A stretch of 64,000 nt of DNA from the IMG/VR virus record IMGVR_UViG_3300046786_000293, positions 256,001 through 320,000 of that record; one strand, given 5' to 3'. The number at the start of each line of letters is the position of its first letter. Positions within the stretch are counted from its first letter, which is position 1. This DNA comes from a virus (lineage: Duplodnaviria; Caudoviricetes). A program made the position numbers and the translations under genes. The notes under the pieces were generated by a model that ran no database searches, had not been told where the DNA came from, and saw only the letters and a list, made by a program, of their open reading frames with translations. Below are positions 42,631 to 51,525 of this stretch, one piece after another.

Positions 42631-43761
42631 TTAGTTGCTAGATAAACTTGTTCCATGATTATTATACACTTTTTCAACCGACAATTGCAATACTTTCATT
42701 GCTCGTTGTGGCCAGTGTTCGGGCACTTTATTTTGATCAGTCATATGAATACCAAAATGGTTCCATGGGAAATTAATTTGTGTTTTGTCCAAATAGTGCT
42801 GATCCCTTGCTATGTTCATTACGTTATGGTCTATATTGGGTGCGACAATAATTTCTTTAATGTAAGGTTTCCAAAACGCCGGCAAGTCTTCTAAAGTGAA
42901 TTTATAGTCTGCACCGTTAACAGGATCTACAGAGTATAAATTGCTAGCCATAGGATTAATGTTTACACAGTCAGGATCTCTGTCGTCAAAGCCATATCGA
43001 ATAGTCATTCCGTCAAAAAAATGGGGAGGTAATTCAACAGGCGGACAAACTTCCGCTCCAATTTCACAGCACCAATAGCCGTCGTAGTGTCTGAACTGTT
43101 CGTTGATTGCACTATAAATTTTGTTGCGAGGCTGTGCTACTCTATTCCAATCTTCAAATCTAAAAAACTTATTTTCGGGACGTTGTTGTTTAATGTACCA
43201 GTATAAAAATTGTTTTTTAATTACACGTATACTATCATTGTTTACTTGTTCGTATACTGTGAATTTTCCATCTGCTGTTAGATAACCACCGAATACATAA
43301 CTTGTCCTAACATGTTCGGGATAGTGGCTAGTCATTAATACTGCGGCTGGATTCGGATCATTTAAAATAGTTTTAAGTCCATCTTCAAATAATTCTGTAT
43401 TGCTGTCCATGAAGATATGATCTTCGTTGGCATTAAAGAAGACTAAGTCATCGGGAATAGTATCAATTAGTTGCGCTATTTCCATCCATTGGTTCATATA
43501 ATCACAACGATGCCAATAGATAATAACTTTATCTTCGGTTAACTTAGATTTTATCCATTCTTCCATTTCCTGTTCTCTACCCGTAAACTCAGCTAGGTCC
43601 AAACAAAAAATATATTTGGATACTAAATGATCTAAAGGCGCAAGGCTTGCAAAACTGTACTTGGCGATATCGAACCGACAGTCGGTGCGTAATGTATATC
43701 TTTTATTTAAATGGGGGTGTAGACGAACGTCTGTGATTTTACAATTAAACCAAACTATCAT
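42631..43761 (-). CDS. Hypothetical protein, possibly glycosyltransferase-related
   Basis: 376 aa; FFNANEDHIF, FRHYDGY. Confidence 0.65.
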   Translation of the reverse strand: MIVWFNCKITDVRLHPHLNKRYTLRTDCRFDIAKYSFASLAPLDHLVSKYIFCLDLAEFTGREQEMEEWIKSKLTEDKVIIYWHRCDYMNQWMEIAQLIDTIPDDLVFFNANEDHIFMDSNTELFEDGLKTILNDPNPAAVLMTSHYPEHVRTSYVFGGYLTADGKFTVYEQVNNDSIRVIKKQFLYWYIKQQRPENKFFRFEDWNRVAQPRNKIYSAINEQFRHYDGYWCCEIGAEVCPPVELPPHFFDGMTIRYGFDDRDPDCVNINPMASNLYSVDPVNGADYKFTLEDLPAFWKPYIKEIIVAPNIDHNVMNIARDQHYLDKTQINFPWNHFGIHMTDQNKVPEHWPQRAMKVLQLSVEKVYNNHGTSLSSN

Positions 43762-43775
43762 AATATTATTGAAAA

Positions 43776-43857
43776 GTGCTCACTCTAGAGTATACAGTAG
43801 CGAATTGTATATGTCAAGGCAGCAGCCGCCTACCCGGTCCTAAGGCACAGGTCTAGT
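43776..43857 (-). ncRNA. Unassigned structured RNA candidate
   Basis: GC-rich intergenic island after TAAATA (43862-43867); hairpins AGGCGG-CUG-CUGCCU and UAUACA-AUUCGCUAC-UGUAUA, closed by GUGC/GCAC. Confidence 0.5.
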
Positions 43858-44852
43858 TAAGTATTTAGTAGATTGTAATCGGTCAATCGAGAGACCAAAT
43901 TTGCTCTAAATGAATCTGACAAAAAGTATTCTCTATTATACTCTATTTCTTTAATTTTGGCAGCGAATAAATCTGCCAGATTATTGTAAATTTTATCTAA
44001 TAGCTCTAACATACAATCTATTCTAACCATCATATCGCTATGTGATTCGTAAGCATGATTATCTAGTATATCGTCGAAGCATTCAAACCCCAATGATCGC
44101 AATGTGTCTAGACTATTCTTGCCGTTTACTGAAAGAAACAATTGGCCTGCGGCTAATGGCTTACAAGTTTTTTCACTAAAGAACGTATATGTATATGCAG
44201 ACTCTGTGATTAAATTTAAATAGCAATCTGCAAATGCCGGGTGATAAAATGAATGATCGTTGTCCCAGTGATTATCGCCAGGCACACATTCTTTATACAT
44301 TTGTGTTTTTGATATTTTATCGCATACTTCTAAAGGCAAATGATTTACACCCAATTGAAACGCAGTTAACTCTTGTCCATTGTAGGGATTTTTAAAACCA
44401 TAACAACTTACTAAGTTATTTTTGTCTAATTCTTTTTCCAATAGTCGATATACCAAATACAGTCTATGTGGTGCGGGATATCTATTTAAACTACTAAAAT
44501 TATATTTTCTATTAGACGATATAGTGTAATCATGCTTAGAATATTCTAGACTAGATGCATATAGCCATCCGGGAAAAAATATAATGCGGTCTTCTTGATA
44601 AGTTGCATCAGCAGTTAGATAATAAACATCTGCGCCTATTTGTTGATCTAATATATTTTTTACATCTATTAGATTTGGCGGTTGAACGCTACGATCATGA
44701 TCTTTGGTAAAATCTAAAATGACTGGACCATTGATCTTATTAAGAATATCTTTGTGATTTAAGTTATTGGATTGATCGAAGAGTTGTTGTGTTTGAAAAT
44801 CAAAAATTACCGGTATGCATGTATACCGGTAATCGGGGCGCCTAAAAATCAT
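43857..44852 (-). CDS. Hypothetical protein, exostosin/glycosyltransferase-like C-terminus
   Basis: FSSLNRYPAPHR, LNLITES, FSEKTCKPL, GFECFDDILD. Confidence 0.65.
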   Translation of the reverse strand: MIFRRPDYRYTCIPVIFDFQTQQLFDQSNNLNHKDILNKINGPVILDFTKDHDRSVQPPNLIDVKNILDQQIGADVYYLTADATYQEDRIIFFPGWLYASSLEYSKHDYTISSNRKYNFSSLNRYPAPHRLYLVYRLLEKELDKNNLVSCYGFKNPYNGQELTAFQLGVNHLPLEVCDKISKTQMYKECVPGDNHWDNDHSFYHPAFADCYLNLITESAYTYTFFSEKTCKPLAAGQLFLSVNGKNSLDTLRSLGFECFDDILDNHAYESHSDMMVRIDCMLELLDKIYNNLADLFAAKIKEIEYNREYFLSDSFRANLVSRLTDYNLLNT

Positions 44853-45287
44853 TTATTTTAAACTAGAACGTAACATCCATGCATGTTTGTCATGAGCGTC
44901 CATGCGCTCTGCCAAGAAGTTGCTTAAGCCATGCTTGCCTTCGCGTTCGGATAAGTCATAGACTAGTTTTAGTACTCTAACAATTTTTCCGCTGTCTTCT
45001 AATAGTTCCGCTACCATTGCTTCTTTTGGTGGAACTTGTGTTTCGTCGTCGATTTGACTTAGCATACTTAGACGACTAAAACTAGCAGGAGTATAACTGC
45101 CTAACTTACGAATATTCTCTCCAAATGGATCGATGCTGTCCAACACTTCTTCGTATATCTTACCAAATAAATCATGATATTCTAAAAAGTCAGATCCTTC
45201 TACGTTGAAGTGGAAGAAATGTGCTTTTAGATAAAATGCAAATTCTGTACTGTATGCAATTTTCATTGCTTTAATTAGTTCATCCAT
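44853..45287 (-). CDS. dps: Dps / ferritin-like DNA protection protein
   Basis: KAHFFHFNVEG..F...HDLF...Y......D..GE.IR; HDKHAWML. Confidence 0.92.
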   Translation of the reverse strand: MDELIKAMKIAYSTEFAFYLKAHFFHFNVEGSDFLEYHDLFGKIYEEVLDSIDPFGENIRKLGSYTPASFSRLSMLSQIDDETQVPPKEAMVAELLEDSGKIVRVLKLVYDLSEREGKHGLSNFLAERMDAHDKHAWMLRSSLK

Positions 45288-47265
45288 TTTTCTTTACCTT
45301 CTTAACTCGTTGTTGTCCACGTGGTACGCTACCTACAGGGCTAACGAAATTATCATCGCCTATTGTAGCCGCACTAACTGTATGCTTACTTAAATCATAT
45401 TCAGTAAATGTGCGTGTTGCTTCTAAATATAATTTTTTAAAGTTTTGGTTGCTTTCACTTAGGAACCAACCATTATTGTCTTTTCTAAGTCCGAACTTGT
45501 TGCGTAGTTCTCCTGCGCTGGTTCCGGATATTTTAAAATAGCGACGACTTTCGCTGATACTATTGTTTGTTCTTTGTAGTCTTTCCAGTACATCTTGTAC
45601 AGCCAGATCTAAGTCGCTCATGCTGCCGATTTCGCCGTATTTGTCTACAACGTCCATAATAGCGTCTCCGACTACTTCGTGTCCAAATTGACGTACAACA
45701 TCCCCCTCTATTTGATTTAGTGCCTTGAAAATAGCATCGGCTAAATCTAGTCCGCTGATTGTTTCGCTAATTGGAATGTTTTGAATATCTAATATAGCCG
45801 CTGGCTTAGGACCACCACCGCCCGAAGTTGGTGGCTTAGGTGGAGTACGTTGTCCGCTTGGTGGTACATACACTTGTTGTGGTGGATATGTTCTGGTAGG
45901 TTGTGTGCTTAGTACAGGAGTAACAGGACCTATACGTTGTTCCGCCATGCTTTGCTTCTGACGCCACACACTGGAATTCTTTAGTCTGCTGGTTGAACCC
46001 CAAGCAATGCTACGACCGTTGAATACAAAAATCAATTTGTTCAACACCACAGCAGGGCTATGTGGATCTGAGCCAAACTCGCCAGAAACATCACCTATCT
46101 TACGAGCACCCTTGGACTCCAAGAACTTCCAAAACTTTTCAACTGCTTTGGCTTTATGCCACTTGGGTTGATCCTCTGGTTTCAAATCACGGTCAATAAA
46201 AATGTATCCTGGGTCTTTGTATCGTGAGCCATCACCACGAGTCCACATTCTCATACCGGGATTTTTATAATCCATTGGATAGTATGGGCTCCCGCTCATT
46301 TGTTTATTAAATTCAGAGATTAGGCCTCTAATAAAATCAATGGTAGGAGATTCGGTTATAGTATCTTCCGCCACACCTGAATCAGGTCTTGCTGTCATCA
46401 TGGCACCGGGATCAATATTGCCCTTGTTGTCATAACGATGCTGAACACCCTTCTTACCTGCTTTGACTAGTCTTTCCATTGCGGCTTTGGCATCACGATA
46501 GTTATCGTGTGTGGTGGTCTTGATCCAATCACCACTTGAATTGCGATAGCCTACATGAATTTTGCCTTCCGCCACACCTTTAACATCCCAGGTTTTATGG
46601 CACTGGTGACATTCCTTCTCGCCATCACTGTATGTTTTTATGTCGGTGGAATGACAACGCGGGCACTGGTATTGTTTGCCCAGACGACCTTCGTTGCCAT
46701 CATCGCGGATTGGGTGTTCTTCGTCATCGTAGCCTTCCGCCACACCTTGACTTTTACTACGATTAAAATCTCTTGTTGCTTGACGACTTCTGGCGCGGGT
46801 GCTCGGTTCTTTGTATGCTCTCCAACGATCAACCTTTGTGCCACACTTGGTGCAATGTAATACACCATCCATGTCATCGTGGATGCTGGTTTCTTGATAC
46901 TTGCCCTTCTTACACTTTTCGCAAGTCTGACCAGTCATATCTTTTTGTGTAGAGCCTTCCTCCACACCTTGCTTGGTTCTAATAATCTCACGGTCAAGGG
47001 CTCTGATCTCTGATTTCAAATCAACTAATCTTAACTCACCATTTTCTAATGCTCGTTTAATCCCCAATTTAGTATCAACTAAATCAGTAACTGACATATT
47101 TTGAATCTGACTTAGTAGGTCTGCATAATACCCAGCATAATAATCATTGGTATCGTCATCGTCTAAACCTTCAGACACACCTTCATTTAAATGTGTGCAA
47201 TTGCAAGGCGTTTGCCCGCACACATTACACATATCTCTACTTTCAAAAAAATCAAATAATTTCAT
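45280..47265 (-). CDS. Modular protein with repeated GV(A/S/E)E linkers and Cys-pair (Zn-ribbon) modules; likely internal head protein
   Basis: Starts MKLFDFFE; five GVxE linkers; CxxC pairs (CNVC..C.C, CEKC..CTKC, CPRC..CHQC). Confidence 0.75.
   Translation of the reverse strand: MKLFDFFESRDMCNVCGQTPCNCTHLNEGVSEGLDDDDTNDYYAGYYADLLSQIQNMSVTDLVDTKLGIKRALENGELRLVDLKSEIRALDREIIRTKQGVEEGSTQKDMTGQTCEKCKKGKYQETSIHDDMDGVLHCTKCGTKVDRWRAYKEPSTRARSRQATRDFNRSKSQGVAEGYDDEEHPIRDDGNEGRLGKQYQCPRCHSTDIKTYSDGEKECHQCHKTWDVKGVAEGKIHVGYRNSSGDWIKTTTHDNYRDAKAAMERLVKAGKKGVQHRYDNKGNIDPGAMMTARPDSGVAEDTITESPTIDFIRGLISEFNKQMSGSPYYPMDYKNPGMRMWTRGDGSRYKDPGYIFIDRDLKPEDQPKWHKAKAVEKFWKFLESKGARKIGDVSGEFGSDPHSPAVVLNKLIFVFNGRSIAWGSTSRLKNSSVWRQKQSMAEQRIGPVTPVLSTQPTRTYPPQQVYVPPSGQRTPPKPPTSGGGGPKPAAILDIQNIPISETISGLDLADAIFKALNQIEGDVVRQFGHEVVGDAIMDVVDKYGEIGSMSDLDLAVQDVLERLQRTNNSISESRRYFKISGTSAGELRNKFGLRKDNNGWFLSESNQNFKKLYLEATRTFTEYDLSKHTVSAATIGDDNFVSPVGSVPRGQQRVKKVKKNG
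46366..47181 (-). repeat. Dispersed 12-nt repeat GGTGTGGCGGAA (Gly-Val-Ala-Glu)
   Basis: Exact copies at 46366, 46567 and 46735; variants at 46957 and 47170; also 51651 (exact) and 51846 (variant). Confidence 0.85.
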
Positions 47266-47266
47266 A

Positions 47267-49558
47267 TTACTTTCCTTGCCTTGCCAACATTGCTGCATTA
47301 CTTAGTGCTGTTTTTAGAGCAGGTGCAGATTGCGGACTTTCTGCAGCCTTGGCAATTAACGGTGTTAGTGCGCTCATAGACATAGATTCAGGCGAAGTTA
47401 ATGGTTTATTATCGCTTATTTTTGTAACTGCACTGCTTAATGTATTTGTATCTACTTTTGGACCTAGTACACTAGATAAACCGCTCATCGTGCTTTTGGC
47501 AGTAGATACATCTTGCATTTGGTCTAATTGTTGTTGTTTTACAGCAGCAGGATCTTGTTGTACGCTTGTTTGGCTTGTGATTTGTATATCTGGATCCTGT
47601 TTATTAACTGCGGGATCTTCTACTTCATTTGTCTTTTTGCGATCTAACGCACGTAATTTTTGTGCAAGTTTGGCTATATCTACTGGACCATGTTCACGTT
47701 CTTGTTTTTGTACAAGTTTTTTAACACGAGCAATCATGTTATCAAAATCATCTGGATCATAGCGGCTTGCTATTAAATTGTCATCTTTGTTTTCTTTCAT
47801 TCCTGAACGATACCCTGTGTGTTGTACGTGTACTGGATCATTGGGGAGAAATCCTAAATTATACTTATCACCCTTTGGATCATTTTTTGCCAACCAATTG
47901 CGTAATGCCGCAATTTGGTCTGCTCTTGCGTCAATTGCATGGGCTTTGTGGCTTTCGGGATCTTTAGGAGGAGCCCCGTAAACACCAGGTCTTCCTGCTT
48001 TATAATCTCGATGAAGTTTTTCCTGTTCTGCGGCTGTTCTTGCTGAGCTAGTAACGGTTATTGGTATACCCGAATCTTTGCTGGCACGTTCTAAATTAGA
48101 TCTGAATGTTGAATCTAATTTTGTATAACGATCAGCTTGTTTAGCATCGGCGAATCCGAAGTGACTAGGAGAAGTATCTAATGCTTCGATGTTTTTTGGA
48201 TTTTTTACGTGCCAACGACCGTCGTCTGACTTGTAAGTACCGTCAGATTGTTTAGTGAAACTTACGTTAATATTTTTTGTTGGATCTGAAGGATCCTTTA
48301 CATCTCTGAATAACTTGGTTCCTGGAAGATGTCCAGTAATCTTAGTAGGAGTTTGTTGATCTGCAGGAGTAGATGCAGCAGCCGAGGCCTGGCTTGGGAC
48401 TGTTTGAGTAGAAGCGGGTGCAGGTGCGGCTGTTTTAGTTGCCGGTTGAGTAGCAGTAGGCGTAGGTGCAGAACTTGCGGCGGTTTTGTTAACAACTCGT
48501 TCACCGGGTGACAAAGAATCTGCCGTGCTCACCGAAGGAGTTGGTGTTGTACTTCTTGTAGTCGGTGCCGCCGAAGTGTTTGTTCGTGTAGATGTTGCAG
48601 GAGTTTGAGCATTGGGGTCAACGCTACTACCACCAATTTCACCTCTTCGTACTTTTGCAGCAATTTTTTCTAATGTGTCCCCGGGACTAACTATATGCTT
48701 TTCGGTGCTTCCAGGTAATTTAATTTCTTGCCCGGGATAAATTTTATTAGGATTCTTGATAGCTGGATTACTCTTCCAAACTTCTTGCCAACTTCCTGGA
48801 GCAGGATTTTTTGGCATTTGTGGAATAACTGGAGCAGCAGGTTTGGTTGGTGCTGGCGCGGTTGCAGTTGTGGCTGGGGGCAAAGGTTGTGAAGTAATTT
48901 TAACGGGCTCTGCGACAGGTTTAACTTCTGGACCAGGTACAACGGTGCTAGGTGCAGGTTGTGCTACAGGTTGTTGTGCTACGGTAGTTCCTGGTTCGCG
49001 TGCTATACTTTGATCTCTGTCCGGACTTACTAGATCTGCTGCCTTTGCTACATTAATTTGACCACCAGAGCCAACTGGTGCGCCTGAGCCACTTCTAACT
49101 GGCTCACCGGTACTTGTTTGTACTACAGGGGGATTTTTATCTAAGTATGTTCTTATTTCATCTTGTGTAGCAGGTTGCATACCCATACGTTGACGAACGA
49201 TAGGATCTATTCCTGTATATGTAGGAGTCTTACTGGCATTCCATTGTTTATCTAATTCTGCTTTAGGTAAATCAGGACCACTGGAGGCTCTTAACGCTGC
49301 CCAATCATTTGCTGTATTATTGGTTTCTTCTTTAAACTTATTAAATTTTTCTAATAAGGACCACTCGGTGACTTTTTCTTTAGCAGTATTGTGTAGATCT
49401 TTTATTATACTTTCTTCGCAGCCACCGACCATTTTAGATTTGGCTTTGCTAGCAGGATCAGTACCTTTCCAGTAGCCGGGAAATTTAGGACCTGTAGATT
49501 TTTTAGCAGCCTTTTCCATGCTATCTACTGCTTCTAAAAGTTTACGCATATTGGTCAT
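47267..49558 (-). CDS. Pro/Thr-rich protein with LysM-like and M15-type peptidase domains
   Basis: NPAIKNPNKIYPGQEIKLP and HIVSPGDTLEKIA (LysM halves); SSARTAAEQ, SHKAHAID, DPVHVQ (M15 Zn peptidase). Confidence 0.8.
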   Translation of the reverse strand: MTNMRKLLEAVDSMEKAAKKSTGPKFPGYWKGTDPASKAKSKMVGGCEESIIKDLHNTAKEKVTEWSLLEKFNKFKEETNNTANDWAALRASSGPDLPKAELDKQWNASKTPTYTGIDPIVRQRMGMQPATQDEIRTYLDKNPPVVQTSTGEPVRSGSGAPVGSGGQINVAKAADLVSPDRDQSIAREPGTTVAQQPVAQPAPSTVVPGPEVKPVAEPVKITSQPLPPATTATAPAPTKPAAPVIPQMPKNPAPGSWQEVWKSNPAIKNPNKIYPGQEIKLPGSTEKHIVSPGDTLEKIAAKVRRGEIGGSSVDPNAQTPATSTRTNTSAAPTTRSTTPTPSVSTADSLSPGERVVNKTAASSAPTPTATQPATKTAAPAPASTQTVPSQASAAASTPADQQTPTKITGHLPGTKLFRDVKDPSDPTKNINVSFTKQSDGTYKSDDGRWHVKNPKNIEALDTSPSHFGFADAKQADRYTKLDSTFRSNLERASKDSGIPITVTSSARTAAEQEKLHRDYKAGRPGVYGAPPKDPESHKAHAIDARADQIAALRNWLAKNDPKGDKYNLGFLPNDPVHVQHTGYRSGMKENKDDNLIASRYDPDDFDNMIARVKKLVQKQEREHGPVDIAKLAQKLRALDRKKTNEVEDPAVNKQDPDIQITSQTSVQQDPAAVKQQQLDQMQDVSTAKSTMSGLSSVLGPKVDTNTLSSAVTKISDNKPLTSPESMSMSALTPLIAKAAESPQSAPALKTALSNAAMLARQGK

Positions 49559-51525
49559 TTTATTTTTCTTTTATCGTACGGTACTTTAAAGTCATTGATA
49601 AATTCTTTAAATTCTTTAACAGCTCCAGGTATACCTCCAGGAGTTATTCTATGTAAACGTTCAATCCAGTCGTCATTTTTTGAACTACCAGATCCTACTC
49701 CTGGCCCAGTACCTGTTCCTACACCGCCACCGGTACCTCCGCCGGACCCACTGCTTTGTTGTGAATCTTTTTCTTTATCTTTACCAGACGCTGCGGGCGC
49801 AAAGGTAGGCTCGCTTGCTGGTTTTTGCTGTGGTGTTGCTTGTGGCTTAACAGGCTCAGGTTGCGGCTTTACTTGAGGTTTAGTAGGCTCAGGTTGCGGT
49901 TTTACTGGTTCAGGCTCAACGGCAATGTCTGCGGGTTTTGTAACTGGAGGCAAATCTTCTGGTCTCCATATTTCGACAGGCATCGGTACAGTTTGTGATG
50001 TTGGTTCTGCGGCAGGTTCTTGATCTACTTTGCCTTGCCCTTGTCCTTCTTTACCGCCGCCGCCTGTAGTCATTGAAGCACCCACAGGCACAGCCGCTGG
50101 GCTCCACATTTTTTTATCGCCTTGCATTTTGGGCGGTAAAGGTTCGTCAGCTCTTGACGTCGATGTTGGAGGTTTAATTGGCTGGTCATCCCCTGGTCTT
50201 GTTTGCATTAATTCTTGATCTCGGCGACGGGCCTGTGCTTGTGTGCGTGCGGGATTAATTCGAATTGGATTGGCTATAATAGGAGCATTGGCTGAGGTTG
50301 TTGCTCCCGGTGCAACTTGAGAAGGCTCATTAACAACTTTTAATCTAGGTTTTGGCCCTGCAGGAACTTCTGCACCTTGTGGCATAGCTGAAGGTTGTCC
50401 CGCTCTTTGATAAGCAGGAACTTCAACATTTGCTGGTGTGCGAGGCACAGGTCCCGGAGTAACTCTTGGTCCACTTACTACAGCCCCGCCAGCTCCGCCT
50501 GGCGGAAACTCTAAAGGTATTGTAGTTGGTTTAAAAGGACCTTTGGTTTGTTCTTTTAACTTTCGGCTGCTAATAGGAAAGTTTGTACTTAAAAATTCTT
50601 CAAATTCTTCAGCAACCTTTTTAGTTGCTTGCTCTTTGATCGCTCCAGGTATACCACCCGGTGTTATTCTATGTAAACGTTCAATCCAATCCCCGTCGGG
50701 AGTTTTATAATATGTTGGTTCTTGTTGTGCAACTGCTACCGGCGCCGCAGCTAATTGCCCAGGTCTACCCGGACCTGATGGTTCGTTAGGTCTTGTTGCT
50801 AGTTGTGTCTGCGGGGCAAGTTCGGGCTCGGTGTCGGGCTGCGATGATGTTGCTATACCACGCTGTTGTAATAAATTTAATTCTGCTTTTAAATTGGGAT
50901 CATCGGGAGTCTTTTCGAGTTCACGTCGGACGTCCTTGGCATACTGTTGATCAGCAAATGATGGTTTGTTCCCACCGCCTGCGGCAGTAGAATACACGTT
51001 TGAGTATTCACTTCCTGCGCCAACTTTTACACGAGGTTGTGGCTTTGTTAAAGTAGATACTGTGGCAGATTGTTTTGGTATGCTAGGTTCATTTGCTGCA
51101 ACCGGTGCAGCCTTTGCAAATTTAGTGTCCGGTCCAGTACCGCCAATTACACCCAACGGTTGCGGCGGAGTTGTACCAGCAGCCTTTCGCATATAGGCCG
51201 GTTCTTTAGCACCTTTTGGATCTAACCATGGTTGCTTAGGTGTATATGCTGGAGTTTCTGGATCTATAGAGGGCGGTAATGTAAGTGGTAATGATTTTTG
51301 CCCAGGTGCAGGTGTTGTTGCCCCGGTAGCAGGCTTCTGTGTTGGCTCGACAGGTTTTGTTAATTGCTGACCCATCATATTGAATGCTTTATTACCGGCT
51401 GGTATGTTAGTTAATGTACCTATGGGTAACTTTTGTTGAGAGGGAAAATCATAGACTTTTTTCGCCGCCTGTCCTTGTTCGGCAAGTTTATCTAATGACT
51501 CTAACAAACGACGGATGTCTGACAT
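49555..51525 (-). CDS. Pro/Gly-rich low-complexity modular protein; likely internal head protein
   Basis: Starts MSDIRRLLE; duplicated DWIERLHRITPGGIPGAxKE; KPQPEP repeats. Confidence 0.75.
   Translation of the reverse strand: MSDIRRLLESLDKLAEQGQAAKKVYDFPSQQKLPIGTLTNIPAGNKAFNMMGQQLTKPVEPTQKPATGATTPAPGQKSLPLTLPPSIDPETPAYTPKQPWLDPKGAKEPAYMRKAAGTTPPQPLGVIGGTGPDTKFAKAAPVAANEPSIPKQSATVSTLTKPQPRVKVGAGSEYSNVYSTAAGGGNKPSFADQQYAKDVRRELEKTPDDPNLKAELNLLQQRGIATSSQPDTEPELAPQTQLATRPNEPSGPGRPGQLAAAPVAVAQQEPTYYKTPDGDWIERLHRITPGGIPGAIKEQATKKVAEEFEEFLSTNFPISSRKLKEQTKGPFKPTTIPLEFPPGGAGGAVVSGPRVTPGPVPRTPANVEVPAYQRAGQPSAMPQGAEVPAGPKPRLKVVNEPSQVAPGATTSANAPIIANPIRINPARTQAQARRRDQELMQTRPGDDQPIKPPTSTSRADEPLPPKMQGDKKMWSPAAVPVGASMTTGGGGKEGQGQGKVDQEPAAEPTSQTVPMPVEIWRPEDLPPVTKPADIAVEPEPVKPQPEPTKPQVKPQPEPVKPQATPQQKPASEPTFAPAASGKDKEKDSQQSSGSGGGTGGGVGTGTGPGVGSGSSKNDDWIERLHRITPGGIPGAVKEFKEFINDFKVPYDKRKIK
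49622..50691 (-). repeat. About 50-nt direct repeat encoding DWIERLHRITPGGIPGA
   Basis: Copies at 49622-49671 and 50642-50691, differing at a few synonymous positions. Confidence 0.9.

Follow-up and report, generated by a model that had tools for sequence, protein, structure and literature searches.

The gap between two open reading frames (ORFs) of this jumbo phage encodes a structured RNA that belongs to a real, undescribed family without close functional precedent. The fold consists of three hairpins (P1, P2 and P3) and a pseudoknot that joins the loop of the middle hairpin to the 3' tail, and two conserved loops, L1 and L3, have no partner within the RNA and are complementary to 23S rRNA. 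Binding to the rRNA is likely, and we regard it as probable that the element is a late phage RNA that would pair with free or immature 50S subunits through helices H69–H71 of 23S rRNA.

The window, a 64,000-nt stretch of DNA, is contained in a 338.5-kb virus record (G000, 97% complete) that encodes ~40 tRNAs, a tmRNA and bS21. The nearest cultured relatives of its polymerase are those of Sinorhizobium phage Phosso (52%), Atu_ph07 and the Rak2/121Q-like jumbo phages. The features of the locus are collected in Table 1. The upstream ORF gave a weak glycosyltransferase-10-like lead, and its adjacency to the element is not conserved. The downstream ORF is likewise a swappable neighbour, ahead of an 88-aa DNA-binding gene, which matches PA5oct-group phages too, and DNA polymerase B. 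Further upstream of the element, the minus strand carries a Dps/ferritin gene and long low-complexity proteins with repeated VAEG-type motifs (window:44853-45287 and 45280-51525), which are probably late head-internal proteins.

Table 1 Features of the element and its flanks in the window
Feature	Position	Strand	Description
Upstream 331-aa ORF	43857..44852	-	No Pfam/PHROG match; stop 12 nt before L1
Late-promoter-like TAAATA	43862..43867	-	Inside the end of the upstream ORF
Folded RNA element	43852-43778	minus	Fills nearly the whole 95-nt gap between the 331-aa and 376-aa ORFs
Hairpin P1	43832..43852	-	5' arm 43852-43848, 3' arm 43836-43832
L1, CCUUAGGACCG	43835..43845	-	11-nt exact complement of 23S 1920-1930 (H69 3' strand, H69/H70 junction)
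Hairpin P2	43817..43831	-	4 bp, 7-nt loop L2; covariation
Hairpin P3	43786..43816	-	Interrupted stem bearing L3; alignment helices 3 and 4
L3, AUUCGCUAC	43797..43805	-	8-nt complement of 23S 1930-1937 (H70)
Pseudoknot	43778..43826	-	G43826-C43778, C43825-G43779, U43824-A43780, C43822-G43781; G43823 bulged
3' tail (pseudoknot strand) and U-rich run	43771..43785	-	Likely 3' end (inferred)
Sigma70-type promoter	43789..43817	-	TTGACA, 17 nt, TATACT; 11/12; consensus match only
Downstream 376-aa ORF	42631..43761	-	GT-A-like fold lead (glycosyl/nucleotidyl transferase)

In the same genome, we also observed a lone tRNA with a CUA (amber) anticodon outside the tRNA cluster (G000:C1:183606-183679), a T4 RNA ligase 1-like gene (G000:C1 112748-113308) and a two-piece tmRNA (G000:C1 5387-6021). 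The phage bS21 gene (G000:C1:48204-48359, L542) lies beside Hsp20 and ClpS genes. Assignment of this bS21 to Chen's Bacteroidetes bS21 clades was unsupported, given the ClpS/Hsp20 context and a far lower score against the Bacteroidetes-type chain 7jil than others.

The sequence quoted in an earlier sequence-only reading was found on the minus strand at 43851-43776. That reading had described a GC-rich island within an intergenic gap; the element is richer in GC than the window (46.7% vs 39.7%), but the excess is modest, and it occupies almost the entire gap rather than an island in it. The two small hairpins that had been drawn, AGGCGG/CUGCCU and UAUACA/UGUAUA, both exist. The long-range pairs had been drawn wrongly: the proposed outer stem, together with a pseudoknot or switch pairing a loop with GUAGGCGG, gave a joint covariation of 0.066 against 0.075 for shuffled controls, and three of the seven outer-stem positions are unpaired in 70-78 of 96 homologues. 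A pseudoknot is present, as had been suspected, but it joins the P2 loop to the 3' tail.

The large family obtained from the homologue search supports this fold by covariation. Pairing holds in 92.5% of the cells of P2, P3 and the pseudoknot, 14 of the 15 pairs change on both sides, and the covariation score is 0.543 compared with 0.149 for shuffled and at most 0.144 for slid controls. All four pairs of P2 have two-sided changes (98% of cells paired), and the pseudoknot, which has many compensated variants across homologues, is paired in 100% of cells with both sides changing in four of its five columns. P1 was left out of the alignment scoring because its register shifts; its arms vary freely with complementarity maintained, and its per-sequence helices are nearly all Watson-Crick. 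Many homologues have an extra hairpin inserted in P1, while the window carries the minimal form without this optional hairpin, which is complementary to the H69 loop. The single window sequence folds no better than its shuffles (z +0.5 to +0.6). Pairing of L1 with the tail or with L3 was rejected because the tails and L3 change while L1 does not. A DNA-level role as an I-CeuI or attachment site was also rejected, since the site is split, swapped and placed within covarying stems that contain G.U pairs.

The family comprises more than 230 distinct homologues in uncultured phages of 300–370 kb, nearly always with one copy per genome. The search started from a 16-mer of the middle hairpin, which was found in 114 viral contigs, and was enlarged by looser patterns, by loci picked by synteny alone and by a metagenome scan. 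This yielded 237 distinct parsed copies, including a few false or double parses, and further copies in metagenomes. Because the homologues are related, these counts are not independent. Most of the searches required L1, and among the 94 homologues found without that requirement, 92 have it. The covariance model detected one copy in seven of eight near-complete genomes, most of which had been chosen for carrying the motif, and in the eighth the copy is diverged: L1 is present together with a lengthened 5' part, whereas L3 cannot be recognised (G004, L674:528-640). One genome has a second copy that retains P2, the pseudoknot, L3 and the tail and has lost L1 (G002:C1:76941-77017, L673). L3 is altered in L639, and in two longer variants on a different scaffold (L576:2751 and L657), L1 and L3 are intact and an intrinsic terminator follows. 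A GTDB scan gave two real matches, both in contigs of Bacteroidota MAGs (Haliscomenobacter, copy L238 in G058:C1; Lishizhenia, copy L235). A bacterial copy was rejected for the Haliscomenobacter contig, which is a binned phage because it carries the polymerase of the window's phage group at 69%. The window element had no blastn match among isolate phages.

The element is the end of a transcript and not the leader of the next gene, because promoters lie inside or after it, a U-run follows it, its neighbours vary and stop codons precede it. The sequence-only reading had taken the RNA for a small ncRNA, ribozyme or cis-regulator; the structured ncRNA is borne out by the covarying family, whereas regulation of the downstream gene in cis conflicts with neighbours from 57 downstream and 77 upstream gene clusters, with a promoter that lies within the element or directly behind it in 111 of 230 homologues and with the terminator behind the PA5oct copy described below. 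The downstream ATG (43761) lacks an SD, as had been noted; this is ordinary here because only 69 of 292 ORFs have an SD-like word. On the upstream side, a stop codon marks the start of 201 of 226 homologues (89%), in 42 of which it is the UAG within L1, and the stop-to-element spacing peaks at 5-11 nt. Past the tail, the U fraction is 0.47-0.70 at positions +2 to +6 and ~0.33 further on. The ratio of G.U to A.C in the stems (49:24) favours the gene strand; the G.U excess comes from P2 (9:0) and P3, while P1 shows the reverse (A.C to G.U, 8:3).

The TAAATA word was present as reported (43867-43862, minus strand), and it is a real promoter-like word in this genome: 61 of 292 ORFs have it in the 40 nt upstream, compared with 43 of 6249 coding windows. 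In the window, transcription from it could yield a standalone RNA of ~85 nt that begins just before P1, and it lies upstream of only ~21 of 236 homologues. The candidate sigma70 promoter in the P3 DNA would start the downstream mRNA near 43782, inside the tail and without L1–L3. The near-consensus promoter embedded in P3 occupies the same site in 11 related homologues, the window element and ten relatives, and a clade that puts the same DNA to dual use as P3 and promoter includes the window, L015, L033, L079, L240, L244 and L246.

A diverged copy was detected, by the covariance model only, in the cultured Pseudomonas phage PA5oct (NC_071039.1:115465-115562, E 1.4e-4), and its sequence occurs in eleven records, including Paride, MIJ3, Callisto and Cassandra. 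In this copy L1 and L3 are intact, P2 and the tail are changed, and by inspection a 5-bp pseudoknot can still form; it is immediately flanked by a stop codon on the 5' side and an intrinsic terminator on the 3' side. Six relatives (Phosso, Atu_ph07, 121Q, Vibrio 2.275.O, XaC1 and Serratia BF) had no copy. The 11-mer containing TAAATA at window:43861-43871 also precedes the PA5oct element, 40 nt upstream there (L679 near 1460), and is probably a late-promoter word common to both genomes. Four ncRNAs were annotated from PA5oct RNA-seq by Lood et al., and the element locus is not among them (PMC7318152). With the PA5oct/Paride copy, a family of metagenomic sequences gains a cultured phage-host pair for which RNA-seq has been published, and the family is now testable because a diverged copy followed by a terminator exists in these cultured phages.

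The complementarity to 23S rRNA, which the sequence-only reading had overlooked, was assessed against the E. coli sequence. In the window, the 8-nt match of L3 is its longest to 23S rRNA and directly abuts the L1 target (helix 69–70). Across the family, the L3 types fall by target into ~185 at 1927-1937, ~30 at 1964-1969, ~14 at 1966-1978 and 3 at 1938-1944. Six loop modules together match 47 nt in one 80-nt stretch, compared with 32 for the best stretch elsewhere in 16S and 23S rRNA and at most 34 for shuffled modules, two of the six having been picked after the match was seen. The optional hairpin carries GUU(A/G) opposite 1911-1914 in 95 of 120 inserts (shuffled mean 28, maximum 44), and its position opposite 1915, a nucleotide that is N3-methylated and cannot pair, is nearly free while its neighbours are not. 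The few changes in L1 opposite 1922-1923 are of the G.U type in six of seven cases, and L1 and L3 are both retained on altered scaffolds (L576, L657 and PA5oct). The commonest 5-mers of the P3 3' strand complement 1938-1942 and 1955-1959 (23 copies vs 0.8 shuffled, a count inflated by kinship). For all 14 gene-strand elements, co-folding gave the segment 1905-1954 a rank between 1 and 11 of 174; with the opposite strand it ranked 111th. Positions 1905-1961 are identical in the 23S rRNA of five further genera.

Some observations count against the pairing. The predicted accessibility of L1 averages only 0.33-0.65, the 23S target is itself structured, the first A of L3 is kept though it has no Watson-Crick partner at 1938, and a few copies lack one module (L3 in G004, L1 in the second copy of G002). 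In a subfamily comprising L138, L334, L359, L562, L610 and PA5oct, a sense copy of the rRNA word pairs in cis with part of L1, so that only a short toehold stays free. We also noticed that the common form of L2 (window:43819-43828) complements 16S 519-527 (530 loop) and 23S 1069-1075 and that the tail (window:43778-43784) complements 23S 1098-1104, the 23S targets of L2 and tail being nearby L11-binding segments. These matches were discounted, since they are lost in pseudoknot variants and chance alone can produce 7-9-mers.

We propose that a non-coding RNA of ~80-100 nt would be made as the 3' end of a late transcript, in the window possibly also from its own late promoter, and would be released from the mRNA. 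The central pseudoknot would lock the 3' tail and hold the two flanking hairpins, whose loops may base-pair in trans with H69–H71 of the host 23S rRNA: L1 with 1921-1930, L3 with 1930-1937 or the facing strand 1964-1978, and the optional anchors with the H69 loop and 1938-1942. The target would be free or not-yet-matured 50S subunits because this region is buried in the 70S ribosome. H69 and H71 are flexible in pre-50S particles (PMC11260487), and PNA against H69 is reported to block translation (Kulik 2017, as cited in PMC12828698). In exposed subunits, 23S decay is initiated by an RNase E cut after nucleotide 1942 (PMC4931109), and Paride replicates in dormant cells (PMC10761892). The RNA may cover the interface beside the RNase E cut and keep subunits usable in slow-growing hosts. 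Taken by itself, such shielding of the 50S subunit is the most likely purpose, albeit one in which we place low confidence; it is favoured because the anchors surround the site where 23S decay starts, because a phage that encodes tRNAs and bS21 depends on ribosomes and because Paride grows in dormant cells. Blocking of subunit joining or maturation by the same pairing is nearly as likely.

The main rival explanation is that the element acts in cis, catching the 50S subunit of a just-terminated ribosome on the mRNA past the stop codon and thereby affecting recycling or re-initiation. The placement at stop codons, the use of the L1 UAG as a stop, the peaked spacing and the identical layout in PA5oct fit this explanation, which we nevertheless consider unlikely: the upstream genes are of 77 unrelated clusters, L009, L198 and L347 have a promoter and no adjacent stop, each genome has a single copy, a terminator or promoter separates the element from the next gene, and compact genomes yield the same stop spacing. 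It is less likely still that the RNA guides or performs a chemical change in 23S rRNA near 1921-1930, such as modification, cleavage or a repair splint. Two arms abutting at 1929/1930, with L1 fixed and L3 movable, resemble a guide or splint, yet the anchors in L3 are displaced by as much as 40 nt, the pseudoknot exchanges its sequence freely, which a catalytic core would not, and no neighbouring enzyme is conserved. A search of five carriers for four enzyme families found no RluA/RluD-type pseudouridine synthase and no RtcB, and RNA ligases in only one carrier each.

The opposite strand could instead be functional, as an rRNA-piece mimic that acts as a decoy for H69/H70-binding proteins or nucleases. 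Folding energies without strand preference (125 vs 111) and the A.C excess in P1 would allow this, but the G.U excess in P2 and P3, the promoters, U-run and terminator all on the gene strand, and rRNA pieces that stand in swapped order and are unpaired where the rRNA pairs them make it very improbable. The least likely explanation is that the element acts on its own transcript, as a riboswitch or a self-cleaving ribozyme, with the rRNA match an accident or relic. The compact pseudoknot and conserved junction bases are in keeping with it, L2 with the tail loosely resembles the SAM/SAH aptamer, and CUUAG loosely resembles preQ1-II/III. Against it, neither Rfam 15 (no hits at the gathering threshold or at E<=10) nor ARAGORN gave a match, in agreement with the sequence-only reading, which had recognised no known tRNA, riboswitch or ribozyme; covariation refutes the switch, no downstream gene is consistent, and the complementarity to rRNA greatly exceeds chance and reappears in loop types that are independent of one another.

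Comparison with known systems places the 50S-pairing reading beside several partial parallels. CopA/CopT of R1 and RNA I/RNA II of ColE1 carry conserved recognition bases in hairpin loops on variable stems, and they are encoded opposite their targets and fully complementary to them. The phage element similarly presents conserved unpaired loops that complement a target RNA, with L1 partly accessible in prediction, and would likely start by kissing followed by strand invasion. Unlike these antisense RNAs, it is trans-encoded and combines two to four short anchors (6-12 nt, rarely longer) with a pseudoknot core and a host rRNA target. Guide snoRNAs and sRNAs of archaea and eukaryotes (H/ACA, C/D and U3), a class not known from bacteria or phages, make short bipartite pairings with rRNA at functional centres. 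The element shares the short, bipartite complementarity at such a centre, probably on immature particles, and differs in having no guide-box layout and, among the five carriers, no partner enzyme found. Like the TURBS, which serve re-initiation in caliciviruses, it is an rRNA-complementary mRNA element near a stop codon; the TURBS lie upstream of the stop-start and match small-subunit rRNA, whereas the element lies downstream of the stop, matches 23S rRNA and often has a promoter or terminator between itself and the gene that follows, and its match to 16S 519-527 is lost in pseudoknot variants.

With the SAM/SAH and preQ1-II/III riboswitches, the element shares an H-type pseudoknot, a purine-rich 3' tail and the CUUAG word; it differs in lacking an Rfam match and a fixed downstream gene (57 clusters), in a tail that is not the SD and in freely exchanging loop and tail sequences. 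Self-cleaving ribozyme classes gave no Rfam match either, and the topology derived from covariation fits none of the classes compared. We are aware of no RNA that occurs naturally in bacteria or phages and pairs with a functional centre of 23S rRNA, and our literature search, which covered few subscription papers, found neither such an RNA nor a published description of the element. Phage bS21 (PMC9723584) and YjgA, a 50S-interface binder (PMC11260487), resemble it in their candidate action on host ribosomal subunits; these are proteins, whereas the element is an RNA that would read rRNA sequence.

We tentatively suggest that an RNA serves jumbo phages as a ribosome factor. This small, pseudoknotted RNA may clamp H69–H71 of free 50S subunits and control their fate, through protection from RNase E decay or through subunit joining, and may help Paride-like phages replicate in starved or dormant cells. 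The element is a candidate for Paride's unexplained replication in dormant cells, as a hypothetical link only. If binding is confirmed, this would be a new viral way of handling host ribosomes, conserved from lake phages to Pseudomonas phages.
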